A stretch of DNA of 32,198 bases, from positions 1 to 32,198 of the forward strand of contig JAVEXH010000001.1 in the NCBI GenBank assembly GCA_034004175.1, read 5' to 3'. Position 1 is the stretch's first letter, and each line of letters starts with the position of its first letter. The notes under the pieces are model-generated. The model saw only the letters and a list, made by a program, of their open reading frames with translations, was not told where the DNA came from and did no database searches. Of the stretch, positions 16,753 to 29,694 are shown piece after piece. Made by a program: the position numbers and the translations under genes. The stretch is from Spirochaetia bacterium (GTDB taxonomy: Bacteria; Spirochaetota; Spirochaetia; Treponematales; UBA12059).

Positions 16753-16780
16753 TTTACATATGTTTAACCTGAGCTATACT
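16753..16780 (+). promoter_or_regulatory. candidate sigma70-type promoter of the 13-gene operon (TTTACA-N16-TATACT)
   Basis: TTTACA at 16753-16758 and TATACT at 16775-16780, ~50 nt upstream of ATG 16832. TTTACATAT occurs twice as a direct repeat (16739-16747, 16753-16761). Confidence 0.35.
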
Positions 16781-16831
16781 GTCATAGAAATTTTGACCCG
16801 CTCCGGCGGGTATGCATCGAGGGGGAATCCT

Positions 16832-17329
16832 ATGATGACGATCAAGGCTCGAGTGCTGGGTTTCCTGGGTTTGTGGGCTGTGTGGCTTCTGCTGACGGCT
16901 CCCTGGACCACCCAGGAGGCTGTTGCGGGTGCACTGGTAGCGCTTCTTGTCTCCCTGTTGCCACTGTCAGGGGCATCACCACTTGGTGACCTGAAGCTGA
17001 GTCCGAAGGCCTTGGCCTCCCTGGTGGTGTATGTGTTTGTCTTCATCAAAGCCCTGGTGCAGTCCAATCTTGATGTAGCCTTCCGGGTGCTTCATCCGAG
17101 ACTGCCTATCGATCCGGGCATCGTGAAGGTAAAGACCAGGCTGAAGACCCCCTTGGGACGCCTGTTGCTTGCCAATTCCATAACCCTGACTCCAGGGACC
17201 ATAACCGTGGAGATGCACGGTGATGATCTGTACATCCACTGGATAAAGGTGGCCGACCCGGATCCGGAGGCTGCAACCGCGGCCATCGTCGGGAACTTCG
17301 AGAAGTATCTGGAGGTGATCTGTGGCTGA
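16832..17329 (+). CDS. MrpE/MnhE-like subunit (MbhA/MbxA position)
   Basis: Two N-terminal TMs plus the family motif NSITLTPGTITVE. Preferred start is ATG 16832 (GAGGGGG 6 nt upstream) rather than track start 16760. Confidence 0.8.
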   Translation: MMTIKARVLGFLGLWAVWLLLTAPWTTQEAVAGALVALLVSLLPLSGASPLGDLKLSPKALASLVVYVFVFIKALVQSNLDVAFRVLHPRLPIDPGIVKVKTRLKTPLGRLLLANSITLTPGTITVEMHGDDLYIHWIKVADPDPEAATAAIVGNFEKYLEVICG

Positions 17330-17582
17330 TGCGGTGTTTTACGTGGCCGTTGGCATTGCCGTACTGGCCCTGCTGCTGTCCGGCATACGTTTTGCCCTCG
17401 GGCCCTGGGCTATCGACCGGACCGTTGCCCTGGATGCCATGACCATACTGGCAACCTCCCTGATAGTGGCCTTTGCGCTTCTGTCCGGCAGGCGGATCTA
17501 CATCGACGTAGCCATGGTCTATGGCTTGGTCGGCTTTGCCGGTGTGGTGGCGGTGGCCCGCTACCTGGAAGGAGGCTTGTGA
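17322..17582 (+). CDS. MrpF/PhaF-like subunit (MbxB position)
   Basis: 86 aa, 3 TM, typical MrpF length and pattern (LGPWAIDRTVALDAM...YIDVAMVYGLVGF). GTG start has GGAGG 6 nt upstream and overlaps the previous stop by 8 nt. Confidence 0.8.
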   Translation: MADAVFYVAVGIAVLALLLSGIRFALGPWAIDRTVALDAMTILATSLIVAFALLSGRRIYIDVAMVYGLVGFAGVVAVARYLEGGL

Positions 17583-17959
17583 TGCTTGCCGTCATCGGAG
17601 CCTTTGTCAGTCTGACCGGCGCGGTGTTCTTCCTGCTTGCGGCCATAGGCCTCTTGCGCATGCCTGATGCCCTCAACCGCATGCAGGCAGGCACCAAAGC
17701 CACTACCCTGGGATCGATCCTTTTCCTTTTCGGCATAGGCATGATGCAACCCGGTTATCTGGGCCGGGTATTCATTCTTGTGGTCTTCATAGTGCTTACC
17801 AACCCGGTCAGTTCCAACGCCCTTGCACGGGCCGCCCATGCCAACAGGAAGCGTATCGGTGCCAGCCTGTCGATCGACGCCCTGGCCGATGATGAAGCTG
17901 CCATAGCGGCTGAAGACAGGAAAGCCGGCGGAAACAAGGAGGCAGTCCATGGTGCTTGA
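17582..17959 (+). CDS. MrpG/MnhG-like subunit (MbxC position)
   Basis: MnhG signature LRMPDALNRMQAGTKATTLG. ATG 17582 lies 6 nt after GGAAGGAGG (TGATG overlap); GTG 17579 is an alternative. Confidence 0.8.
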   Translation: MLAVIGAFVSLTGAVFFLLAAIGLLRMPDALNRMQAGTKATTLGSILFLFGIGMMQPGYLGRVFILVVFIVLTNPVSSNALARAAHANRKRIGASLSIDALADDEAAIAAEDRKAGGNKEAVHGA

Positions 17960-18275
17960 TATCATGCTACTGTCCGCAGGAGCCATCATGGTCGCCGCAG
18001 GCATAGGCGCTGTCCTGGCGAGGAGCCTGCTCGTCTCCATCATATTGTCCGGCGGCGTAAGCCTGGTGGCCAGCCTGGTTTTCCTGCTCATCGGCGCTCC
18101 TGATGTAGCCATGACCGAGGCTGCAATCGGCTCGGGCCTGACCACCGTGGTCTTCCTGTATGCCCTGTCCCGGGCCAGGCAGGCCGATGACGAGGACTCC
18201 GATGCTGCCGAGATCGGTGCCTCGCCCGTAGTAGCTGAAACCGGGACAAACCAGGAACAGGGAGGCCGGACATGA
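17949..18275 (+). CDS. MbhD/DUF4040-like subunit (MrpA C-terminal-like; MbxD position)
   Basis: 108 aa, 3 TM, motif GAPDVAMTEAAIGSGLTTV characteristic of the MrpA-C/MbhD family. AAGGAGG SD. Confidence 0.75.
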   Translation: MVLDIMLLSAGAIMVAAGIGAVLARSLLVSIILSGGVSLVASLVFLLIGAPDVAMTEAAIGSGLTTVVFLYALSRARQADDEDSDAAEIGASPVVAETGTNQEQGGRT

Positions 18276-18970
18276 TGCGAAGATTCCTTGTTCTGGCTGT
18301 GATCATCGCCCTTGGTGTGGCGATGTGGCCTCTGGTGATGGGTGCCGGGGTTGTCGATGCACCTGCTGCCCTGCCTTCTGCCTACCTGGACGGCGCTCCG
18401 AAGGACTTCGGGGCGGCCAATGTGGTTACCGCCATTGTGGTCAGTTACCGCGGCTTTGATACCTTGGGAGAGGTGGCCGTGCTGTTCGCAGCTACCGCCG
18501 GTGTTGGTAGCCTGTTGTCGCGCAAGCGGCTTGGGACCGGCCTGCCGGCCAGCGGACGCAAGCACGGCACTGAGATCCTGGGAACCGCCAGCAGGCTGTT
18601 GTCCAGCCTCCTTGTCATGTTCGGTGTATACATCTTCATGCATGGACACCTGACCCCGGGCGGCGGTTTCCAGGGCGGTGTGGTCATAGCTACGGCCATG
18701 TTGCTGGCCTTGCTGTCCAACCCTGATTCCCACCTGGCCCACGGTGCCATGACCGCAGTTGAGTCGTTGTCCGGGGCGGCCTACGTAGCCCTGGCCTTGC
18801 TGGGAGCCTTCCTCGGGCTGGGCTTCCTGGATCCACGGATCCTTCCCCCGGGTTCCGTAGGTGCCCTGGTAAGTGCGGGAACCATTCCACTCATCTATTC
18901 TGTCATCGGGCTCAAGGTCGGCGCCGAGCTGTCCGGCATCCTGGATGCACTGAAAGGAGACAGGACATGA
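18272..18970 (+). CDS. MnhB/MrpB-domain subunit (MbxF position, with N-terminal MbhE-like helix)
   Basis: MnhB motifs NVVTAIVVSYRGFDTLGE and GHLTPGGGFQGG. ATGA-type overlap with the previous gene. GGAGG SD. Confidence 0.8.
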   Translation: MMRRFLVLAVIIALGVAMWPLVMGAGVVDAPAALPSAYLDGAPKDFGAANVVTAIVVSYRGFDTLGEVAVLFAATAGVGSLLSRKRLGTGLPASGRKHGTEILGTASRLLSSLLVMFGVYIFMHGHLTPGGGFQGGVVIATAMLLALLSNPDSHLAHGAMTAVESLSGAAYVALALLGAFLGLGFLDPRILPPGSVGALVSAGTIPLIYSVIGLKVGAELSGILDALKGDRT

Positions 18971-19338
18971 ACATGTTAGACTTCCTTGCCCAGCTGAACC
19001 CCGTTGCGGTTCCCGGTGCCATACTCATACTGGTGGGGCTGTGGGGCGTACTGGCCAGGCCCAACCTGTTCAAGATTGCCGTGGCCTTCTGCGTCCTTGA
19101 GACCGGTGTGAACATGCTGATCCTGTCCGTCGGGTACATCCGTGGCCGTACGGCACCCATCTACGATGCGGGTGCCCCGACCGCTGCGCGTATGACCGAT
19201 CCGGTGCCCCAGGCCCTGGTCCTGACTGCCATTGTCATCGGACTTGCGGTTACCGCCCTCATGCTCAGCTATGCAGTGCGCCTGCGCAGCGGCGGTGGCG
19301 CTTCTTCCATAGAAGCCTACGGAGAAGAAAAATGGTAA
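18967..19338 (+). CDS. MnhC/MrpC, NuoK-like subunit (MbxG position)
   Basis: 123 aa, 3 TM with an acidic residue in a TM (CVLETGVNMLIL), as in the NuoK/MrpC family. AAGGAG SD 7 nt upstream. Confidence 0.75.
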   Translation: MNMLDFLAQLNPVAVPGAILILVGLWGVLARPNLFKIAVAFCVLETGVNMLILSVGYIRGRTAPIYDAGAPTAARMTDPVPQALVLTAIVIGLAVTALMLSYAVRLRSGGGASSIEAYGEEKW

Positions 19339-22300
19339 ACCCCCTCTACTTCTTCGCCGCTTCCATGGCGGTAGCCTTCATCCTGCCCCTGGCTGACAAG
19401 CTTGGCAGACGGCTGTCCTTGTTCATACTGTATGCCGTAACGGCAGCCTGGGCAGCGGCTGGAGCCTCCTGGCTGCTGGCCCTGCTTCAGGATGGTTTCC
19501 AAAGTGCACTGCAGAGCGGCGCTGCCACCGACTTCGGTACTGCCGGCTTCGGCGCTCCCCTGGCCATTGTGCTCAGGGTAGGGCTGGTTGAGGCTGCAGC
19601 GGTACTGGCCATAGGTCTTGTAGGCCTGTTGTCCGCTGCCTTCATGCACCGCGACCTGCACAAGGCACCTCTGGGTGGCTCCATGGCCTTCATCATGGCA
19701 GTCATGGGCCTTGCAGGCATCGTCCTGACCAGGGACCTCTTAAACCTGTTCGTGTTCCTGGAAATCTCCGCCATTGCCACCTATGGACTCATAGGCTTTG
19801 ATGACCGCAGGCCTGCCCTGCGCTCGGCCTTCAAGTACATGATGGCCGGCGGCATTGCCAGCGCCCTGTACCTGATAGGCGTCATCTACGTGTACCGCTT
19901 CGGGGACACCCTGAACCTGGACATAGCCGCCGCCGCCTTGGCTGCAAGTGGCACCGCCGGCCTCGGCAGCGCCGCCGGTACGGTTGCCATCTTCTTCCTG
20001 CTGGCAGCCCTGCTGGTGGAGCTGAAGCCCTTCCCGGCCAATGGCTGGGGTATCGATGTCTACGAAACCGCCAATCCCGGTGTGGCTGCCCTGCTGTCCG
20101 GGGCCTCGGCTACCGCCCTGGTGGTGGCGCTCTGGAAGCTGCTGCCCATCCTGGGCACTGCCCACCTGGCCATAGTGGCAGGCAGCGGGCTGGCTACCTT
20201 TGCGGCTGCCAACCTGGCCGGTGCCCGCCAGAGCGGTACCAGGCGTATGCTTGGCTACTCCTCGGCCGCCCAGATAGGCCTCGTAACCGCAGTGGTGGCC
20301 CTGGTGAAGCTTTTGAACCTCGGCGACTCCGGCTTCATGCTGATGGTGGCCGGGGGTCTGACCCTGAACCACCTCCTGGCCAAGACCGGCCTCTTCCTGC
20401 TTTCCGGCATGTTGGGTGACGACGACAGCAAGGCTATCATGTCGCCCCTTACCCTGGCGGTGGCCGGCATGCTGGCCCTTGGCCTGGTAGGCCTGCCTCC
20501 CTTCTCCGGCTTCTGGGCCAAGTGGCAGTTGGTGCAGGCCCTGGCCTCCGGCGGGCATTTCTGGATCATCGTCATAGTACTGGGCGGAAGCCTGGTGGAA
20601 GCCTTCTATATATTCCGCTGGCTTGGCCGTCTTGCAAAAGCCAGGCAGGCTGCCGCTGATCCACTGGCTGCCAGTCTGGCCGATGCCGGCCTCCTGAGGG
20701 CTGGCCGGCAACTAGCCGGCCCGGCCCTGATGGCCGTGGCTCTGGCTGGCTTCGGTGTGCTGGCTGGCCTGGATGCGTTGGCTGGGTTGGAAGTGCTGAC
20801 TGGGGCCGGCGGGAATGCCGCTGTTGCCGGTCTTGCCGGATACCTCCTCTGGGCGCCTTACCTGGCCGTGGCGATGCTGTTCCTGGTGGACCGGGCTCCC
20901 GGCTGGTTCAAGGGGTTGTTGTCCCTCGCGGCGATTGCCGGTTTCGGCTGGCTGGCCTGGGACGGGCTGGATGCACTGCGGCAGTTCTTCGCGGTTATGC
21001 TGCTCGGGGGCGGGGCCATGTACGCTGTGGCTGCGCTCCGCAAGGGCGGAGCCAGACCGGGGCTGCATCCGCTGATGACCATGGTTACCCTGTCACTTGG
21101 TGCAGTGCTGGTGGCGCAGAGCCCTCTGGGCTTCTTCTTTGCCTGGGAAACGATGACGCTGTCCAGCTGGCTCCTGGTACTCCGGGGCCGCAGAGCCGAG
21201 AAGCCAGCCCTGGCCTACATAGTCTTTGGCCTCGGTGGTGCCTTCCTGTTGATGACCGGCCTGGCAGCTGGCGGGCTTGGGACAGCCGGACTCGGGATGG
21301 CCGGGATGGCTGCCGCAGGCAGTTCCGCAACCGCAGCCTGGCCCTTTGCGCTGGTGCTCGTAGGTATTCTGGTGAAGACCGGTGTGCTGGGCCTGCATGT
21401 GTGGCTGCCGGGCTCTTATGCCGAGGCAGACGACGAGGTGTCCGGCCTCCTGTCGGCTTCCCTGTCAAAAGCGGCGGTCTTTGCGCTCTTTGCCCTGGTT
21501 CTGGCCAATGGAGTACCTGGAGCCCTGGCTCTTGGTCCCTGGGCCTGGCGCGCCTTGGGCTGGGTAGGCCTTGTCACCGCCATGATAGGCGCCCTGTACG
21601 CCATCTACCAGGAAGACATCAAGCTTACCCTGGCCTGGTCTTCCATGGGACAGATAGGCTATGTGGTGCTGGCCTTTGCGGTGATGGACCACGCAGGCTG
21701 GACTACCGCACTGTACCTGGCCCTGAACCATTTCCTGTACAAGTCCATGCTGTTCCTGGCCATTGCCGGGGTCATCCAGCGGACGGGAACGCGCAACATG
21801 TACGAGATGGGCGGGCTCATCAAGAAGATGCCCCTGTCCTTCCTTACGGTGCTGATGGCCATCATCGCCCTGTCCGGTGTGCCGCCCCTCTCCGGCTTCG
21901 GAGCCAAGTGGCTGCTGTATTCCACCCTGATCAGCAAGGGCTGGTATCTTGAGGCTGCAGCTGCCTTCTTTGCCAGCGGTGTGGCCTTCCTGTACCTGTA
22001 TCGACTGATACACTCCATCTTCCTGGGCCAGCCCAAGTCGGAACACAAGGATATCCGGGAAGCTCCATTGGCCCTCATCCTGCCCCAGGTCGGCCTGATG
22101 GCCGTCCTGATGGCGGTGTCGGTCTTCCCGTCCCTTATGCTCAACCCGATACTGGCGATTGCCGGCAACAGCTTCGAGCCTATCTTCCGCTTCGCAGGTT
22201 CCGCCCTGCAGTCTCCCCTTGGCTACTGGAACGGCACCCTGACCATGGTGGTAACCGGCGTGGTCTTCGTCCTCTGCCTGGTGTGGATGATGGTCAACCT

Positions 22301-22583
22301 TCACAACCCGCAATCGGTGAAGCAGTTCAACATTGTGTTTGCAGCCGAGCGGCCCCTGAGGCCCAATACCACCCATTACGCCTGGGCCTTCTTCGAGCCA
22401 TACCGTGACGCACTGGGCTTTTTGACCAGATCCAGAGTCGAGCGCTTCTGGTCGACTTTTGGTACCGGTATCAACGGAATCGGAGGAGTCCTGCGAAGGC
22501 TGTACACGGGCAACGGCCAGACTTACGCACTCCACGTCGTCATCTATGTGGTGGCACTCTACTTTTTCATGGGGGCCTTCTGA
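19332..22583 (+). CDS. fusion of two antiporter-like (NuoN/MrpD-type + NuoL/M/HyfB-type) proton-pump modules (MbxH-MbxH' equivalent in one polypeptide)
   Basis: 1083 aa. Module 1 (~aa 1-455): LFVFLEISAIATYGLIGF, ELKPFPANGWGIDVYETANPGVAALLSG, PPFSGFWAKW. Module 2 (~aa 560-1083): WETMTLSSWLLV, LVKTGVLGLHVWLPGSY, WSSMGQIGYV, NHFLYKSMLFLAIAG, PPLSGFGAKW. No stop or frame change between them. Confidence 0.85.
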   Translation: MVNPLYFFAASMAVAFILPLADKLGRRLSLFILYAVTAAWAAAGASWLLALLQDGFQSALQSGAATDFGTAGFGAPLAIVLRVGLVEAAAVLAIGLVGLLSAAFMHRDLHKAPLGGSMAFIMAVMGLAGIVLTRDLLNLFVFLEISAIATYGLIGFDDRRPALRSAFKYMMAGGIASALYLIGVIYVYRFGDTLNLDIAAAALAASGTAGLGSAAGTVAIFFLLAALLVELKPFPANGWGIDVYETANPGVAALLSGASATALVVALWKLLPILGTAHLAIVAGSGLATFAAANLAGARQSGTRRMLGYSSAAQIGLVTAVVALVKLLNLGDSGFMLMVAGGLTLNHLLAKTGLFLLSGMLGDDDSKAIMSPLTLAVAGMLALGLVGLPPFSGFWAKWQLVQALASGGHFWIIVIVLGGSLVEAFYIFRWLGRLAKARQAAADPLAASLADAGLLRAGRQLAGPALMAVALAGFGVLAGLDALAGLEVLTGAGGNAAVAGLAGYLLWAPYLAVAMLFLVDRAPGWFKGLLSLAAIAGFGWLAWDGLDALRQFFAVMLLGGGAMYAVAALRKGGARPGLHPLMTMVTLSLGAVLVAQSPLGFFFAWETMTLSSWLLVLRGRRAEKPALAYIVFGLGGAFLLMTGLAAGGLGTAGLGMAGMAAAGSSATAAWPFALVLVGILVKTGVLGLHVWLPGSYAEADDEVSGLLSASLSKAAVFALFALVLANGVPGALALGPWAWRALGWVGLVTAMIGALYAIYQEDIKLTLAWSSMGQIGYVVLAFAVMDHAGWTTALYLALNHFLYKSMLFLAIAGVIQRTGTRNMYEMGGLIKKMPLSFLTVLMAIIALSGVPPLSGFGAKWLLYSTLISKGWYLEAAAAFFASGVAFLYLYRLIHSIFLGQPKSEHKDIREAPLALILPQVGLMAVLMAVSVFPSLMLNPILAIAGNSFEPIFRFAGSALQSPLGYWNGTLTMVVTGVVFVLCLVWMMVNLHNPQSVKQFNIVFAAERPLRPNTTHYAWAFFEPYRDALGFLTRSRVERFWSTFGTGINGIGGVLRRLYTGNGQTYALHVVIYVVALYFFMGAF

Positions 22584-23497
22584 TGGAAACTTCGATACTC
22601 GCCCGCATCGGCTATGCCCTGGTATCCCTGTTCGTCATAACCAACTACGGCCTGCTGCTCATAGGATCCATGGCGCGGATAAGTGCCAAGGTCCAGGGCC
22701 GTGTGGGCCAGCCGGTCTACCAGCCTTACCTGGACATCATCAAGAGCACGGCCAAACGCAACACCATAAGCCATGGCATCATGTTCTACCTGGGGCCTGT
22801 CTTCCGCCTGGCAGGCGGGGTAGGCACCTTCATGTTCATACCCATGGTGTACGGTTCGGTGCTGTTCCGGAACTTCAGCGATTCCGGTGACCTCCTGCTG
22901 GTGATGTACTTCATCTTCTTCGGCCAGCTTGGCATGGCCCTGGGAGCCAGTGAAGGCGGCCACCCCTACAGTGCCCTCGGCGTAAGCCGGGGCCTGGCCC
23001 AGATGACGGCCTTTGAAGTGCCCTTTGCCCTGTCGGTGATAGCGGTGGTCATACAGTACGGCACCCTGGATATTACCGCCATAGTTGGGGCCCAGCAGGG
23101 CGGGTTCATGAACTGGACCCTGTTTAACAACCCGGTGGCCGTGCTTGCCGCGATGATAGCCTTCCTGGGCATGTCGGGTCACAACCCTTTCAGTGTCGTC
23201 ATAGCACCCCAGGAAATACCCATAGGGCCGCCGACGGAATACCAGAGCAACCTCCTGGGCATGCTGCAGACCAACCGGGCCATCTTCAACGGCGCCAAGC
23301 TGGTTCTGTACATGAACCTCTTCTTCGGCGGTGGTACGAACATTGTCATTGTTGTGATAAAAACCTTCTTGATATATTTCGTGAATGTGTTCGTGGGGCA
23401 GGCCTTCCCACGGCTCCGGACCGACCAGTCGATCCGGTTCTTCCTCGGCGTGCCCACACTCATAGGCATTGCCGGCGTCATCATAGCTGTGCTGTAG
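22583..23497 (+). CDS. NuoH/HycD/MbhM-like membrane subunit
   Basis: 304 aa, ~8 TM. N-terminal pattern RISAKVQGRVGQPVYQPYLDIIK matches the R-x-A-x-Q-x-R-x-GP...QP-x-D-x-xK motif of the NuoH/HycD family. TGATG overlap with the preceding gene. Confidence 0.85.
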   Translation: METSILARIGYALVSLFVITNYGLLLIGSMARISAKVQGRVGQPVYQPYLDIIKSTAKRNTISHGIMFYLGPVFRLAGGVGTFMFIPMVYGSVLFRNFSDSGDLLLVMYFIFFGQLGMALGASEGGHPYSALGVSRGLAQMTAFEVPFALSVIAVVIQYGTLDITAIVGAQQGGFMNWTLFNNPVAVLAAMIAFLGMSGHNPFSVVIAPQEIPIGPPTEYQSNLLGMLQTNRAIFNGAKLVLYMNLFFGGGTNIVIVVIKTFLIYFVNVFVGQAFPRLRTDQSIRFFLGVPTLIGIAGVIIAVL

Positions 23498-23507
23498 GAG
23501 GCGCCTC

Positions 23508-24173
23508 GTGTCAGACAAACAAATCAAACCGGCGCCTTCGGCGACAACAAGAGCTGAATCCTTGACAACGCCGCTGGCCAACGAGGGCCTGCCGCCTGAA
23601 GAGCATGCGTACTTCTGCGATGTGCCGCCCCGGGAATACGAACCTGCCACCAAGGTGGTGGAGGATTTCTGGAACTGGGCCCGGGCCCAGAGCCTGTGGG
23701 TGCTGGGCTTCGGTACCGGCTGCGGCGCCGTGGAACTGCGGCCCCTGATGACCAGCCGCTTCGACATGTACCGCTATGGCATACAGCCGCGGCCAACGCC
23801 CAGACAGTCATCGGTCTTTGTCATCGGCGGCTACGCCTCGGTGAAGACCCTGAAGCGCATCGTCCGCAGCTACGAGCAGATGATGGGACCCAAGTTCGTG
23901 CTGGCCCTTGGCAGCTGCACCATCAACGGCGGCATGTACTGGGACAGCTACAACACCATCAAGCGCATAGACCAGTACATACCCGTGGATGTGTACATCG
24001 CGGGCTGCATGCCCAGGCCCGAGGCTCTGCTGGCAGGCTTCCAGGAGTTGAAGAAAATCATCCGGGCAGGCCAGGCAGACGGCCAGAACGAATACGCCCG
24101 GAACTTCGAATGGTACAAAGAGAACCAGAAGAAGGTCATCAAGGACTGGAACATGCCGGATTACAACTGGTAG
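23508..24173 (+). CDS. NuoB/HycG/MbhJ-like small subunit with incomplete Cys ligand set and an N-terminal extension
   Basis: Colinear by eye with E. coli NuoB: NWARAQSLWVLGFGTGCGAVE / TPRQSS / GSCTINGGMY / IPVDVYIAGCMPRPEA. GTG start has AGGAGG 6 nt upstream. Confidence 0.85.
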   Translation: MSDKQIKPAPSATTRAESLTTPLANEGLPPEEHAYFCDVPPREYEPATKVVEDFWNWARAQSLWVLGFGTGCGAVELRPLMTSRFDMYRYGIQPRPTPRQSSVFVIGGYASVKTLKRIVRSYEQMMGPKFVLALGSCTINGGMYWDSYNTIKRIDQYIPVDVYIAGCMPRPEALLAGFQELKKIIRAGQADGQNEYARNFEWYKENQKKVIKDWNMPDYNW

Positions 24174-24183
24174 GAGGCCGCAT

Positions 24184-24729
24184 ATGATCAAACTTGCTAC
24201 TGAACTGGCGGCCCGTTACGGCTCCCGGGGCTGGCGGAACCAGCGCCCGGATCTGGCCGTCGTGCAGATCGACCTTGCCAGGCTGCATGACGCCCTTGCC
24301 TGGCTCAGGGACAACGCGGGGTACACCCATCTGTCCTTCATGACCGCGATCGACAATATCGAACGCGGTGTCTTTACCCTGACCTACACCCTGCGTAACC
24401 ACGCCTGGAATGATGGCAAGGGCCACAGCCTGATGGTCCATGCCGATGTGGACCGCAGCAAGCCCGTGGTTGATTCCATCCACCGGCTCTGGGGCCAGGC
24501 CTGGACCTACCAGCGGGAGATGAAGGAATGGTTCGGCATCGACTTCCCCGGCAGCCCCAGGGTTGATGAGGAGTTCGTGCTGGAAGGCTGGCAGGGACCG
24601 CCCATGATGCGCCGCGATTTTGACAGCCTGGTCTACAGCGAAGCCACCTATACCGAGCGTCCCGGCCGGGTTACCCACGACCCCGAAACCTACATGAAAG
24701 AGAAGCTGTACCCGGAGGCCCAGGCATGA
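24184..24729 (+). CDS. NuoC/30-kDa/MbhK-like subunit
   Basis: 181 aa. C-terminal family motif WTYQREMKEWFGIDFPGSP (ERE-x-x-D-x-FGI-x-F-x-GHP type). AGGAGG SD. Confidence 0.8.
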   Translation: MIKLATELAARYGSRGWRNQRPDLAVVQIDLARLHDALAWLRDNAGYTHLSFMTAIDNIERGVFTLTYTLRNHAWNDGKGHSLMVHADVDRSKPVVDSIHRLWGQAWTYQREMKEWFGIDFPGSPRVDEEFVLEGWQGPPMMRRDFDSLVYSEATYTERPGRVTHDPETYMKEKLYPEAQA

Positions 24730-25889
24730 AAAAGCAAACTCAACACATTGTGCCTCCTGCCGAACGCGCTGACATTGACCTGGACTCAGGCAAGTACCTG
24801 GTTATGTGGCAGGGGCCCAACCACCCCGGCATAACCGGCAACATGTCCCTGCGGCTGGTAATTGAAGGAGACACCGTAGTCGACTGCGAGACCCACGTGG
24901 GCTACCTGCACCGGGGTTTCGAGAAGCTCATGGAACGACGGTTGTGGATGCAGAACTTCCCGCTGGTGTGCCGCATCGCGGTGCCCGAGCCTGACTTCAA
25001 CGAATACTGCTACGCTGCCGCGCTGGAGGAACTCGCTGGCGTGGAGGTTCCCGACAAGGCCATATGGCTGCGCACCCTGTCCCTGGAGATGATACGCCTG
25101 GCCAGCTTCCTGATGTGGATAGGCGGGCAGGCCGGCGCCTTCGGGCACGGCACCATTGGCCAGTGGACAGTAACCATGCGCGACTACGTGCTGGACCTCT
25201 TCGAGGAACTGACCGGCGGCCGCATCTACCACATGTATATCATACCCGGCGGTGTCCGTGGCGATGTGCCTCCCGGTTTCCTGAAGCATGTGCTACAGAC
25301 CATGGACATCATCCAGAAAAACCTGGATGACATTGAACTGGTAATGTTCCATAACGTGGTCTACAAGATGCGTGCCCAGGGCCTGGGCTACATACCGCCG
25401 GAATGGATCGACCAGTACGGCATCACCGGGCCCAATGCCAGGGCTGCAGGTGTCAATCGTGACCTGCGCAAAGACCTTGGCTATCTGGCCTATCCGCGGC
25501 TCGACTTCCAGCCCATAACCAGCACGGTCTCCGATGCCTACGAGCGGTCCAGGCTGCGTCTGCTGGAAACGCATCAGGCTATCGACCTGATACGCCAGAT
25601 AGTGGCCAACCTGCCGTCAGATGGCCCCTTCCGGGAGAAGCTGCCCAACCCCTTGTACTGGAAGATACCCGCCGGCGAGACCTATGTGGCAGCCGAATGC
25701 ACCCGGGGTGAGTACGGTTTCTATGTGGTTTCCGATGGCTCGGACAAGCCCCGGCGGGTCGCGGTGCGAGGACCCAGCTATACCCATGCGGTGTCTGTGA
25801 TGGAGCGCCTGGTGCGGGGCGTGAACATAGCAGACGTGGCCGGCCTGATGGTCAGCCTTCATACCTATCCGCCCGAAGTCGAGAGGTGA
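24726..25889 (+). CDS. NuoD/49-kDa/[NiFe]-hydrogenase-large-subunit-like protein lacking all Ni-Fe cysteine ligands
   Basis: 387 aa. Family motifs: GPNHPG, HVGYLHRGFEKLME, GGRIYHMYIIPGGVR, ECTRGEYGFYVVSDG, RVAVRGPSYTH. Ends ...SLHTYPPEVER. ATGA overlap with the NuoC-like gene. Confidence 0.85.
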   Translation: MKKQTQHIVPPAERADIDLDSGKYLVMWQGPNHPGITGNMSLRLVIEGDTVVDCETHVGYLHRGFEKLMERRLWMQNFPLVCRIAVPEPDFNEYCYAAALEELAGVEVPDKAIWLRTLSLEMIRLASFLMWIGGQAGAFGHGTIGQWTVTMRDYVLDLFEELTGGRIYHMYIIPGGVRGDVPPGFLKHVLQTMDIIQKNLDDIELVMFHNVVYKMRAQGLGYIPPEWIDQYGITGPNARAAGVNRDLRKDLGYLAYPRLDFQPITSTVSDAYERSRLRLLETHQAIDLIRQIVANLPSDGPFREKLPNPLYWKIPAGETYVAAECTRGEYGFYVVSDGSDKPRRVAVRGPSYTHAVSVMERLVRGVNIADVAGLMVSLHTYPPEVER

Positions 25890-25893
25890 GGCA

Positions 25894-27750
25894 ATGGATA
25901 TAAAGGACTTCATCGCGCCCTTTGCGGTGTGGAAGCGGGCTTTCGAGAAACCCTTCACGGTAAAGAAGCCCATAGACGAGCGCCCTGGCGCACCACGGTA
26001 CCGGGGCTTCCATATAAACGATTCAGCCAGGTGTGTGGGTTGCGGTACCTGCGAAGCCATCTGCATGAACAATGCCATAGATATGGTTCCGGTTGACGAT
26101 TTGTTGCCGGATGGTGGTGATTCGGGCCTGCGGCCCCGGGTGGACTACGGCCGCTGCTGCTGGTGTGCCCTCTGCGTGGACATCTGTCCCTCGGGCTCTC
26201 TTGGCATGAGCAATGAGTATGTCTGGGTAGACCGCGACCCCGAAGTATTCCGCTACACCCCCGGTGTGGAGGCCAAGCCCTGGGACGGCGCCGAACTGGG
26301 TTACCGCCGGGCCGATGGCTACCGCCTGCTTGAAGAAGAACGAGTGGACATGCCCGAGCTGGACCACCACGAAGCAGTGAAATCCTTCCTTGAACTGGTT
26401 CGGGGCTACTCCCGGGAGCAGGCCGAGAAGGAAGCCGACCGCTGCGTATCCTGCGGGGTCTGCGTGGCATCCTGCCCGGCCCATATGGACATACCAGGCT
26501 ACATCCGGGCTGTGCGTGAGGGCGATCTGGAGGAAGGCCTGCGGCTGCTGTACGAGACCAATCCCTTTCCCGAGGCCTGTGGCCGCATCTGTACCCACCT
26601 CTGCGAGGCCGCTTGTTCAGTAGGATCGGGGATGAATGCCGACGGAACTCCGACAGACCCGGTGGCTATACGCTGGCTGAAACGCTACATAGCCGACCAG
26701 GTGGAGCTGGCCGATTACGGCAAGGCCCTGCCCAGGGCCGAAGCTCCCACCGGCAAGAAGATTGCCATAATCGGTGCAGGACCCGGCGGCTTGGCCGCAG
26801 CCTATTATCTGGCCCTGCTTGGCCATGGCGTTACGGTATTCGAGAAAGACGAAGCCGCCGGCGGCATGCTGCGCTACGGCATCCCTGAATACCGCCTGCC
26901 GTACCCCGCCCTGGACAAGGACATAGCCTGGATCACCTCCCTGGGTGTAGAGATACGTTACGGAACGGCAGTGGGCAAGGATCTGAGCCTGGCGTCCCTG
27001 TACAGCGACTACGATGCCGTATTCCTGTCCACCGGCCTTACGGTGGCCTACAAGCTGGATGTGCCTGGCGACAGCCACCCCCGGGTGCTGGACGGCGTGG
27101 CTGTACTTGCCGCCGCAACCAGAGGCGAGCCCCTAGGGCTTGGCCAGAAAGTGGCTGTGGTCGGCGGCGGCAACGTCGCCATGGACGCCGCACGGACGGC
27201 CCTGCGCAACGGCGCCGAGGTGGACATAGTCTACCGCCGCCGGGAAGTGGACATGCCAGCGGACCCCGAAGAGATCATGGAAGCCAAGGCCGAAGGTGCC
27301 ACTCTCATAGCCCAGGCAATTCCCCTGGAAGTGAAGCCCGCAACCGGTCCCGGTGCCGGGCCGGTTGCTGCCGACAAGGCCGGGTCGGATGCCGCCGGCG
27401 AGACCGCCACCAAGGCAACTTTCGTCTGGAACCTGGCGGAGATGGTGCAGAAGGAGCCGGGCAAGCGCCCCGTTCCCGAGCCCATACCCGGTGCAGTGGT
27501 CGAGAAGACATACGACTCCATCATAGCCGCCATAGGCCAAGGCCCGGACCTGTCGTACGTGGCCGAATCCGATGGCATAGAGCTGCGTCGATACAAACCG
27601 GTGATCGGTCCCGATGGCCGCACCAGCCGTGCCACCGTTTTTGCCGGCGGAGACCTGACCAACGACCGCAAGGACGCCATCTCTGCCATAGCCGACGGCC
27701 ACCGCGCCGCCCTGGCCATGGATCGCCTCCTTGCCGGAAAGGAAGCCTGA
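25894..27750 (+). CDS. fusion protein: NuoI/MbhN-like 2x[4Fe-4S] ferredoxin domain + GltD/SudA/NfnB-like NAD(P)H-dependent FAD oxidoreductase
   Basis: aa 47-57 CVGCGTCEAIC and aa 88-99 CCWCALCVDICP (NuoI-type). aa 184-195 CVSCGVCVASCP and 229-241 CGRICTHLCEAAC (GltD N-terminal Fe-S region). KKIAIIGAGPGGLAAAYYL...EKDEAAGGMLRYGIPEYRLP (FAD site). KVAVVGGGNVAMDAART...VYRRR (NAD(P)H site). VFAGGDL...AIADGHRAALAMD. Confidence 0.85.
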   Translation: MDIKDFIAPFAVWKRAFEKPFTVKKPIDERPGAPRYRGFHINDSARCVGCGTCEAICMNNAIDMVPVDDLLPDGGDSGLRPRVDYGRCCWCALCVDICPSGSLGMSNEYVWVDRDPEVFRYTPGVEAKPWDGAELGYRRADGYRLLEEERVDMPELDHHEAVKSFLELVRGYSREQAEKEADRCVSCGVCVASCPAHMDIPGYIRAVREGDLEEGLRLLYETNPFPEACGRICTHLCEAACSVGSGMNADGTPTDPVAIRWLKRYIADQVELADYGKALPRAEAPTGKKIAIIGAGPGGLAAAYYLALLGHGVTVFEKDEAAGGMLRYGIPEYRLPYPALDKDIAWITSLGVEIRYGTAVGKDLSLASLYSDYDAVFLSTGLTVAYKLDVPGDSHPRVLDGVAVLAAATRGEPLGLGQKVAVVGGGNVAMDAARTALRNGAEVDIVYRRREVDMPADPEEIMEAKAEGATLIAQAIPLEVKPATGPGAGPVAADKAGSDAAGETATKATFVWNLAEMVQKEPGKRPVPEPIPGAVVEKTYDSIIAAIGQGPDLSYVAESDGIELRRYKPVIGPDGRTSRATVFAGGDLTNDRKDAISAIADGHRAALAMDRLLAGKEA

Positions 27751-27751
27751 C

Positions 27752-28207
27752 ATGAACCAGACAGATTTTGCCGGGGCCCTTGAACTGGCCCTGGCCAGGG
27801 AAGAAGCAGCGGTTGCCTTCTACGAAGAATTGATGGGCATGGCCTCTTTTGCCGCCCAGAAGTCCACACTCCGGGAGTTCAGGCTCATGGAAGAAGGACA
27901 TGTGGCCATGGTCAAGTCCATGCAGGCCAAAGGCAGGGTAAACCTGTCACCCGATGCCGCCGTGGACCTTGGCCTGGCCCGCCGCCTGGCGGCCGAAGAA
28001 AAACCAGCCGCCGGCATGAGCTACCAGCAGATCCTGTCAGCCGCCATAAAGAAGGAAGAGCGCAGCAGCGACTTGTACCGTGACCTGGCCGCCGCTGCGG
28101 TTGACGGCGAGATACACCTGGTGTTCGAGCGCCTGGCAGCCGAAGAAAGCAGGCACAAGCACTACTTCGAGGAACTGTACGAGAACGAGGTGAGTAGAGA
28201 TAATTAG
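27752..28207 (+). CDS. rubrerythrin/ferritin-like diiron four-helix-bundle protein without rubredoxin domain
   Basis: 151 aa with no Cys. Ligand pattern E...ExxH twice (REEAAVAFYEE, MEEGH, KKEERSSDLY, AEESRH). ATG at 27752 lies 1 nt after the TGA of the upstream gene, with GGAAAGGAAG upstream; track start 27731 rejected. Confidence 0.7.
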   Translation: MNQTDFAGALELALAREEAAVAFYEELMGMASFAAQKSTLREFRLMEEGHVAMVKSMQAKGRVNLSPDAAVDLGLARRLAAEEKPAAGMSYQQILSAAIKKEERSSDLYRDLAAAAVDGEIHLVFERLAAEESRHKHYFEELYENEVSRDN

Positions 28208-28374: not shown

Positions 28375-29694
28375 ATGGAACGATTGCTTGTAAAGGAACT
28401 TGAGGCATGGAAAAGCCGACAAGGCAGGAAACCCCTGCTTCTCAAGGGCGTACGCCAATGTGGCAAGACGTATCTGCTCAGGGAGTTCGGCAAAGCACAT
28501 TTCAGTGATGTCGCATACTTCAATTTCGAGCTTACCCCAGCCCTTTCAGGTCTCTTTGAAATTGATCTGGATCCATCCCGCATCATCACTGAACTGGGTA
28601 TCCTGCAAGGGCAGAAGATCGAGACTGAGACAACCCTGATCATCTGGGATGAGGTACAGTTCTGCCCTAAGGCTCTGACCGCCCTCAAGTATTTCTCGGA
28701 GCTGGCCCCAGGGTATGCCTTGGCCTGTGCTGGCTCACTTCTGGGTGTGGCCTTGTCGAAACCCTCCTCTTTTCCGGTGGGTAAGGTTGATATCCTGGTT
28801 CTGCGGCCGATGGATTTCCGTGAGTTCCTGGTAGCAAGCCAGGAGAAGCAACTCATCGACTATGCAGCCGGTTTGCCTCCGGATGGGCAGCTTTCCCAAG
28901 CGTTGATTGACAAGTTTTTGGTAGCCCTCAGGATGTTCCAGATAATCGGCGGAATGCCTGAAGCAGTCTCAGCATGGCTACAGAACCGGAATATGGCTGA
29001 GGTGGAGAGAATACAGGATGCCATCCTGGCTAGCTATGAGCTTGATTTTGCCAAATATGCCCCTCCTGCGGATTTTCCGAAGCTCAAGCTGATATGGAAG
29101 AGCATCCCTGCCCAGTTATCCAGGGAAAGCGGGAAATTCCTGTACGGCCACGCAAAGCCGGGGGCACGGGCCAAGGATCTGAAGGACGCCCTGGGCTGGC
29201 TTACCGAGGCAGGCCTTGCATACAAGGTAGGAAGGGTAGAGAAACCAGCCTTCCCCTTGTCCGCCTATATGGACCAGAAAGCCTTCAAGCTGTACCTGGC
29301 GGATATCGGGTTGCTGCGCCGTCTGGCAGGAGTGCCGGGTTCTGTCATGCTCGACGGGAATACCCTGTACAGCGAGTTCAAAGGTGCTCTGATGGAAAAC
29401 TTTGTCCTGAATGAGTTGCTGCGCTTTCTGGGAGACCTGCCCAGCTACTGGACTTCCGGGAATCAGGCAGAGGTGGATTTTGTCTTCCAGTACCATGACA
29501 GCATCCTGCCCCTGGAAGTAAAAGCAGCGACGAATATTCGCTCCCGAAGTTTGGCTGCCTACAGGGAAAAGTACCGACCGCAACTGGCCTTGCGGACCTC
29601 ACTGATGGCGTGCAAGTCCGAGGATGGGCTGTTGAACATTCCGTTGTATCTCTTATGGAACATGGCTGTGTATGTGAGGAAGGTGCTTTCCTGA
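28375..29694 (+). CDS. AAA+ ATPase with C-terminal DUF4143 / PD-(D/E)xK nuclease-like domain
   Basis: Walker A GVRQCGKTYL and Walker B LIIWDEVQ. C-terminal EVDFVF...LPLEVKAA resembles a D...ExK restriction-endonuclease-fold motif. AAGGGG SD 8 nt upstream. Confidence 0.8.
   Translation: MERLLVKELEAWKSRQGRKPLLLKGVRQCGKTYLLREFGKAHFSDVAYFNFELTPALSGLFEIDLDPSRIITELGILQGQKIETETTLIIWDEVQFCPKALTALKYFSELAPGYALACAGSLLGVALSKPSSFPVGKVDILVLRPMDFREFLVASQEKQLIDYAAGLPPDGQLSQALIDKFLVALRMFQIIGGMPEAVSAWLQNRNMAEVERIQDAILASYELDFAKYAPPADFPKLKLIWKSIPAQLSRESGKFLYGHAKPGARAKDLKDALGWLTEAGLAYKVGRVEKPAFPLSAYMDQKAFKLYLADIGLLRRLAGVPGSVMLDGNTLYSEFKGALMENFVLNELLRFLGDLPSYWTSGNQAEVDFVFQYHDSILPLEVKAATNIRSRSLAAYREKYRPQLALRTSLMACKSEDGLLNIPLYLLWNMAVYVRKVLS

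Follow-up and report, generated by a model that had tools for sequence, protein, structure and literature searches.

We analysed a stretch of 32,198 nucleotides (nt) from a Spirochaetia bacterium (GenBank assembly GCA_034004175.1, contig JAVEXH010000001.1, positions 1 to 32,198; hereafter the window), in which one gene of a 12-gene operon joins two antiporter-like subunits, H and H', into a single polypeptide of 1083 amino acids (aa). Comparison of the frame between assemblies showed that the fusion is genuine. It is not rare: one large bacterial clade has the joined gene as its standard form, and the fusion is common in anaerobic bacteria. Very probably, the gene encodes a polypeptide of 30 transmembrane (TM) helices, consisting of an MbsH/MrpD-like module (module 1), an MbsH'/MrpA-N-like module (module 2) and the MbsH' tail, and forms the central part of the membrane arm in a bacterial complex of the MBS/MBX type. 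Complexes of this type are known, whereas the fusion appears to be undescribed in print.

Modules and topology of the fused chain

An earlier note, made from the sequence alone, had claimed that one uninterrupted open reading frame holds two complete Proton_antipo_M modules. The frame indeed runs through 1083 aa without a stop, and the Pfam model PF00361 (Proton_antipo_M, gathering cut-off 21.5 bits) matched the protein twice. When the halves were scored separately, the N-terminal half matched at aa 134-419 with 103.7 bits (E 1.4e-29) and the C-terminal half at aa 598-882 with 142.3 bits (E 2.4e-41). The start ATG has GGAG nine bases upstream. At its 5' end the gene shares 7 nt with the end of the NuoK/MbsG-like gene, and its TGA shares 1 nt with the ATG of the NuoH/MbsM-like gene (TGATG).

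We scored residue conservation in an alignment of 54 full-length homologues. The TM5 Glu and TM7 Lys motifs that had been noticed in both modules contain E144 and K232 in module 1 and E606 and K682 in module 2, all of which are invariant. The PPxSGFxAKW motif also occurs in both modules, with invariant lysines (K397 and K859), but it is located in TM12 and not at the C-terminus, where the note had placed it. Judged from the alignment, the presence and invariance of these key residues are far beyond chance.

We compared the two parts with solved structures. The best match of aa 9-433 was MbsH (6u8y_H, E 3.5e-36), and that of aa 558-1076 was MbsH' (6u8y_X residues 83-613, E 1e-54), with the latter alignment extending to residue 613 of 618. 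The best NCBIfam models were the MbxH-type NF006241 for module 1 and the MbxH'-type NF006419 for module 2, which together with its tail spans aa 496-1083. The charged axis of MbsH' comprises E(TM5), K(TM7), K(TM8), H(TM11) and K(TM12) (PMC8165549), and E606, K682, K713, H800 and K859 of module 2, invariant in all 54 sequences, correspond to E128, K217, K248, H336 and K399 of MbsH', respectively. For module 1, a comparison by sequence alignment only with the MbsH axis (E138, E219, K250, H330 and K393) found E144, K232 in place of the Glu, H347 and K397.

The earlier note had also pointed to an unusual acidic stretch after the HxWLP motif of module 2. This stretch is present and is conserved in the fused clade, where HVWLPGSYAEADDEVSGLLSASLSK showed invariant H689, W691, Y696 (54/54) and K713. 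Within the stretch itself, E698 was found in 52 of the 54 sequences and D701 in 50, and positions 700 and 702 were occupied by D or E. The counterpart in MbsH' is HVWAPDAYSETNQSYT, and the split bacterial H' clade, whose H and H' are separate proteins, has HxWLPxAYAS(T)ET...ISTR, with an Arg at the TM8 position. From these two comparisons, the Tyr that replaces the Met of 'AMEGPTP' in complex I is a general feature of MBS H'-type subunits, whereas the acidic run is specific to the fused clade. By helix count the stretch would lie in the cytoplasmic turn between TM7b' and TM8', which in canonical antiporter-like subunits is where the input half-channel opens. That the stretch acts as an antenna for cations or protons is speculation.

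An AlphaFold2 model was built on the 54-sequence alignment, with a mean predicted local distance difference test (pLDDT) score of 88.2 and a predicted TM-score (pTM) of 0.90, and the TM helices were read from it. The model contained 14 helices in module 1 and 16 in module 2, 30 in total, with TM14 at aa 460-484, TM1' at 496-518 and TM14' at 913-945. DSSP analysis showed the discontinuous TM7 and TM12 in both modules: module 1 is broken at 231-237 and 387-391, module 2 at 684-691 and 849-853. The top Foldseek match of the model was 6u8y_X, with a TM-score of 0.79 over 623 columns that included the lateral helix (HL) and TM16. This match indirectly supports a placement of module 1 under HL, as for MbsH.

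The Ala/Gly/Leu-rich linker that had been proposed at aa ~455-560 did not hold up, as the model assigned this region to TM14, a loop of 11 residues and TM1' to TM3' (496-570). The predicted true connector between the modules is thus short. We rejected aa 455-560 as a set of added helices, since separate H and H' proteins total 1100-1163 aa, compared to the 1083 aa of the fused chain, and the model has 14 + 16 helices. The expectation of an even number of helices across this region was borne out by the four found there (TM14 and TM1' to TM3'). The loops contained 26 Lys and Arg residues on the inside and 3 on the outside when the N-terminus is placed outside (5 versus 2 in module 1 and 21 versus 1 in module 2), and this charge bias indicates that both modules face the same way. 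In the relatives, the alignment columns at aa 484-496 held a median of 0 residues, that is, the TM14-TM1' loop is nearly absent in most of them. The lineage of the window carries a 13-residue Gly/Ala-rich insertion at the junction, and the pLDDT of 63-69 around aa 481-500 marks the least confident part between the modules.

Genuineness, distribution and origin of the fusion

A survey for double-module proteins of ~1000 aa, as had been suggested, returned more than 100 full-length homologues (1005-1170 aa, 40-99% identity) in a protein search. A scan of species genomes found 80 loci, 76 of them bacterial, and in 61 of the 76 a stop-free frame of at least 1000 aa extended across both modules. 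Another 14 were cut by contig ends. The last one, in a metagenome-assembled genome (MAG) of Treponemataceae (L009:7786-10775), has a frame break inside module 1, away from the H/H' junction, and its longest frame is 860 aa; the break is probably an assembly error or marks a pseudogene. The carriers belong to Spirochaetota, Cloacimonadota, Calditrichota, Bacteroidales (Saccharicrinis, Draconibacterium), Krumholzibacteriia, Balneolales, a deltaproteobacterial MAG and Alphaproteobacteria. The closest named record is Spirochaetes bacterium RIFOXYC1_FULL_54_7, and several genera of the window's own family carry the fused gene. The same 12-gene order was observed wherever the contig was long enough, except at three alphaproteobacterial loci that hold only the Mrp-type genes, and ~40 loci showed the mbx order. 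A 1181-aa open frame in a relative (G021) was considered as a second double module and rejected, being two separate genes of ~560 aa together with a spurious frame in GC-rich DNA.

Operons with separate H and H' genes were also found close to the window. In its own genus (G001, L083:6057-9389), TGATAGGAAGGTATG, 9 nt long, lies between the genes for H (484 aa) and H' (622 aa). L082 encodes H of 478 aa and H' of 622 aa with a 9-nt spacer as well, while the genes for H (496 aa) and H' (667 aa) overlap in L081; all three loci carry NuoI::GltD. Since split operons occur in the genus and the family of the window, relatives can carry both split and fused versions. The split proteins share only 28-30% identity with the fused one. 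In a quick maximum-likelihood search of module 2 (92 sequences), a tree of limited sampling and rooting, all 47 fused sequences fell on one side of a branch with a Shimodaira-Hasegawa-like approximate likelihood ratio test (SH-aLRT) value of 99 and all split H' on the other. A fusion that happened once and then spread widely is compatible with this separation. As only 9 nt lie between the stop of H and the start of H' in split operons, the fused gene may plausibly have originated when the stop codon was lost together with this short spacer.

An obvious concern is that the frame is an assembly or sequencing artefact, in which separate H and H' genes were merged by an error hiding a stop/start pair. 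The window does come from a fragmented genome (~74% complete), and split operons with a spacer of only 9 nt exist in the same genus and family. However, both modules lie in one frame, and two compensating errors would be required. The frame is moreover continuous in 61 independent assemblies from many phyla, and the hidden stop/start pair that the earlier note had named as a possible refutation found no support. Compared with the closest independent assembly (L007, ~88% identity), codons 441-570 across the junction showed 34 synonymous and 18 non-synonymous differences and in-frame insertions or deletions only. Fused and split proteins also form separate clades at ~28-30% identity, which argues against a mis-read split gene, and we give an artefact practically no weight. 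The chain might alternatively be translated as one and then end up as two polypeptides, by cleavage in the junction loop, or be started anew inside the gene, so that the mature complex would resemble archaeal MBS. The low model confidence of the junction loop and the Gly/Ala-rich insertion of the window's lineage would fit such a product. Most family members, however, lack a loop that could be cleaved, no in-frame start with a ribosome-binding site was evident in the junction DNA, and the tight hairpin is conserved across phyla. We therefore regard two mature polypeptides as very improbable.

The proposed membrane arm and its presumed coupling loop

The operon comprises MnhE, MrpF, MnhG, MbhD, MbhE/MnhB, NuoK-like, H-H', NuoH-like, NuoB-like, NuoC-like, NuoD-like and NuoI::GltD-like genes, in this order. 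The NuoB-like subunit matched MbsJ (E 9.1e-67), with its GTGCGAVE aligned to FCTGCGGIE of MbsJ, while NDH subunit K has SCC. The proximal cluster of MBS is bound by three Cys (PMC8165549), and the proximal [4Fe-4S] cluster of the NuoB-like subunit is likewise predicted to have three, one Cys standing where the CC pair would be. No NiFe-type CxxC pairs were found in the NuoD-like protein. Taken together, the identities of the modules, the MBS/MBX layout of the operon, the three-Cys (TGCG) NuoB-like subunit and the lack of CxxC pairs in the NuoD-like protein indicate an MBS/MBX-like complex with two pumps, in agreement with the earlier preference for an MBS-like over a one-pump, MBH-like machine.

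The tail of module 2 has the elements of the MbsH' tail, namely TM15, a loop of the ND3/NuoA type, the lateral helix and TM16. Its TM15'-HL loop corresponds to LoopTMH15-16 ('loop 1') of MbsH', which in MBS adjoins the proximal cluster and connects the redox site and the pumps (PMC7684303). We presume that the TM15'-HL loop is the coupling element to the redox module. At three alphaproteobacterial loci, in Mesorhizobium sp. 1B3 (L055:7418-13129), an alphaproteobacterial MAG (L054) and Pseudochelatococcus lubricantis (L074), the fused gene ends an Mrp-only operon, and no NuoH/B/C/D genes follow it. An AraC-type regulator follows the operon in L055, the only one of these loci scanned downstream. 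Two whole genomes were searched, those of Mesorhizobium sp. 1B3 and Pseudochelatococcus; no MbsJ-like protein was found in either, only NuoB at ~40% identity. The Mrp-only sequences nest within the fused clade, beside a relative with the full operon and a rubrerythrin, and they keep every pump residue, HL and TM16. The loop motif VKQFNIVFAAERPxRPETTH, which is largely invariant elsewhere, is deleted or replaced in them. The loop is kept in all cases in which a redox module is encoded and has disappeared in those without one. This pattern favours a fused chain that includes the coupling element and an arm that can be put to new use as a stand-alone antiporter. What the three loci encode looks like an MBS-like arm turned into a stand-alone MrpD::MrpA antiporter.

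By homology with 6U8Y, module 2 would adjoin the NuoH-like subunit, and its loop would reach the three-cysteine proximal cluster; the lateral helix would clamp module 1, which in turn would abut the Mrp-type Na+ module. The gene order would thereby mirror the spatial order of Na+ module, module 1, module 2, NuoH-like subunit and peripheral arm. Redox turnover in the peripheral arm is expected to pass electrons from the NAD(P)H or ferredoxin side through the clusters of NuoI::GltD to the three-Cys cluster. This transfer would change the loop cluster at the interface of the NuoH-like subunit and module 2, and the signal would travel along the charged axis from module 2 to module 1 and drive ion translocation. 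The fusion itself would be a hairpin on the outer face, leading from TM14 of H to TM1 of H' and adding no helices. The sequence, the identity of the domains, the topology model, the conservation and the clade structure are shown by the analysis, whereas we infer that the arm pumps, for which ions it is specific and whether the fusion brings any advantage. The fusion could plausibly be of benefit through a fixed order, co-insertion and 1:1 expression. A gain from 1:1 stoichiometry, which the earlier note had put forward, would be hypothetical; MBS already has one H and one H'.

A two-pump arm of this kind has to be weighed against several points that speak against it. The function of the bacterial complex type is itself inferred in the literature (PMC4758237, PMC9431562), and that the product stays a single chain is read from the open reading frame. 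NF006241 scored 172.8 bits on module 1 against an equivalog cut-off of 645, and NF006419 scored 348 bits on the C-terminal half against a cut-off of 617, both below; module 2 is thus a distant relative and no equivalog. The placement of the modules relative to each other rests on the pTM and a single-chain Foldseek match. The position aligned with the TM8 Lys of MbsH (K250) is T261 in module 1 (window 20112-20114) and A, T, G or S in all 54 homologues, while the invariant K269, two turns further on, is matched in the alignment by an Arg close to where TM8 of MbsH ends. Without the canonical Lys, module 1 may not be a fully autonomous pump and may instead be a modified pump or a relay. The fusion could then be real and module 1 a degenerate relay or scaffold, in which case the arm would in effect have one pump, with a structural spacer on the side of the Na+ module. 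The substitution at TM8 fits this possibility, and variation at TM7/TM8 is also seen in H subunits outside the fused clade (E/A and E in the split clade). On the other hand, E144, E230, K232, H347, K351, K397 and E423 are invariant or nearly so, the model gives module 1 a confident, full fold of 14 TM helices with broken TM7 and TM12, and TM8 was aligned by sequence only. We consider a degenerate module 1 unlikely and retain the two-pump, MBS/MBX-type arm.

Only tentatively, and with more doubt than belief, can the fusion be read as the mark of a bacterial MBS-like lineage, possibly of single origin, in which the joined pumps have diverged in function. Module 1 would have lost its TM8 Lys and module 2 gained the YAE-x-DD patch, with changed ion handling or stoichiometry as the result, and the arm would be detachable, as in the Mrp-only Alphaproteobacteria without the ND3-like loop. 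If this were true, the loop-losing Mrp-only derivatives would be a natural experiment that maps the element coupling redox chemistry to the pumps.

The natural H-H' tandem indicates that the C-terminus of an MrpD-like TM14 can be joined to the N-terminus of an MrpA-like TM1 on the outer face, with almost no loop. It thus provides a structural constraint and, as a single gene of fixed order, practical help in expressing complex-I-like arms and studying their structure. The fused gene is also a clean marker of one large bacterial MBS-like clade, whose signature consists of the acidic patch and the lack of the TM8 Lys in module 1. When it is set beside its Mrp-only derivatives, the TM15-HL loop stands out as the element linked to the redox module.

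The features of the fused gene and its operon are collected in Table 1.

Table 1. Coordinates of the fused H-H' gene, its parts and the flanking operon modules in the window
Feature	Position (aa of the fused protein)	Strand	Remarks
Fused H-H' gene	19332..22583	+	1083 aa, single open reading frame without internal stop
Module 1, MbsH/MrpD-like antiporter-like unit, 14 TM helices	19332..20783 (aa 1-484)	+	E144 (TM5), E230/K232 (TM7), H347/K351 (TM11), K397 (TM12); T261 at the TM8 Lys position
Junction loop, GLEVLTGAGGN	20784..20816 (aa 485-495)	+	11 residues, no K/R, TM14 to TM1', predicted on the outer side
Module 2 core, MbsH'/MrpA-N-like, TM1'-TM14'	20817..22166 (aa 496-945)	+	E606, K682, K713, H800, K804, K859
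Acidic stretch YAEADDE, predicted cytoplasmic TM7b'-TM8' turn	21417..21437 (aa 696-702)	+	Conserved fused-clade signature
TM15'	22233..22298 (aa 968-989)	+	AlphaFold2 and 6u8y_X alignment
TM15'-HL loop, motif VKQFNIVFAAERPLRPNTTH	22299..22376 (aa 990-1015)	+	11 motif positions invariant in 54 sequences
Lateral helix HL	22377..22505 (aa 1016-1058)	+	AlphaFold2 and 6u8y_X alignment
TM16', C-terminal anchor after HL	22515..22568 (aa 1062-1079)	+	AlphaFold2 and 6u8y_X alignment
Mrp-type module: MnhE, MrpF, MnhG, MbhD, MbhE/MnhB, NuoK-like	16760..19338	+	Upstream of the fused gene
Redox module: NuoH-like, NuoB-like, NuoC-like, NuoD-like, NuoI-like::GltD-like fusion	22583..27750	+	Downstream of the fused gene

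Some variation was observed around the operon. A proteobacterial branch (L085:6488-7868 and L054/L055/L074) has the MbhD-like and MnhG-like genes swapped, giving the order E-F-D-G compared to E-F-G-D in the window. In L085, a distant proteobacterial relative, a small rubrerythrin-family gene (by Pfam, 17488-17934) lies right after NuoI::GltD, and an open reading frame of the window (27731-28207) occupies the equivalent position. A gene for an AAA_14/DUF4143 ATPase comes directly after the window's operon (28375-29694) and is seemingly unrelated to it.

Comparison with known systems

The findings do not overturn current views; the fused protein is a variant form of a machine already known, and among bacteria it is nothing unusual. 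An 'mbx-like' operon of bacteria that includes a gltD-related flavoprotein had been reported from genome data in 2015 (PMC4758237). In the literature on Mbx, Mrp-Mbx and fused antiporter-like subunits we found no mention of an H-H' fusion, in an incomplete search that an earlier mention may have escaped. A survey of fusions in complex I lists only NuoCD and NuoBCD (PMC12361115). The complex I subunits NuoL, NuoM and NuoN share with the fused protein the Proton_antipo_M fold, the broken TM7 and TM12, the Glu/Lys axis and, in NuoL, the type of lateral helix. They are, however, three separate subunits, and the loop that lies within the fused chain here belongs to a separate protein there (NuoA/ND3).

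MbhH and MbhI of MBH (PDB 6CFW) likewise combine an antiporter-like unit with an HL-bearing element linked to the NuoH-like subunit. MBH differs in that it contains a single antiporter-like subunit, has MbhI as a protein of its own and retains an intact NiFe site with four cysteines in the large subunit, whereas the window encodes two modules, has the tail built in and has a NuoD-like protein without CxxC pairs. The Mrp antiporters (PDB 6Z16, 7QRU and 7D3U) have the same fold and an MrpD-like and MrpA-like pair clamped by HL. In the characterised Mrp systems, however, MrpA and MrpD are separate proteins. The window's arm, in contrast, is joined to a redox module, with the genes for NuoH/B/C/D/I::GltD directly downstream, and the counterpart of the MrpA C-terminal domain is encoded by a separate gene (MbhD/MbhE-like).

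Closer to the window are the split bacterial MBX-like operons (L083, L082 and L081), which have the same 12-13 gene layout and the NuoI::GltD fusion. They differ in their separate H (478-496 aa) and H' (622-667 aa), which form a separate clade, and in their H', where an Arg replaces the TM8' Lys and AS(T)ET replaces AE(A)DD. The MBX of T. maritima, a 13-subunit homologue of MBS (PMC9431562), probably belongs with these operons; its 13 subunits are consistent with separate H and H'.

The closest structural reference is the MBS of Pyrococcus furiosus (PDB 6U8Y). Both systems have H followed by H', the TM15-loop-HL-TM16 arrangement on H', the same operon order, an MbsJ-like proximal cluster with three Cys and the E/K/K/H/K charged residues of H'. 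Identity between them is only ~25%, and some differences were evident. H and H' are separate polypeptides in MBS, as opposed to the single open reading frame found here and in 61 related loci. Module 1 has K232 where MbsH has a Glu at TM7 and lacks the TM8 Lys, and module 2 has YAEADDE compared to YSETNQS in MbsH'. Furthermore, the NuoI-like subunit of the window is fused to a GltD-like flavoprotein, unlike that of MBS.

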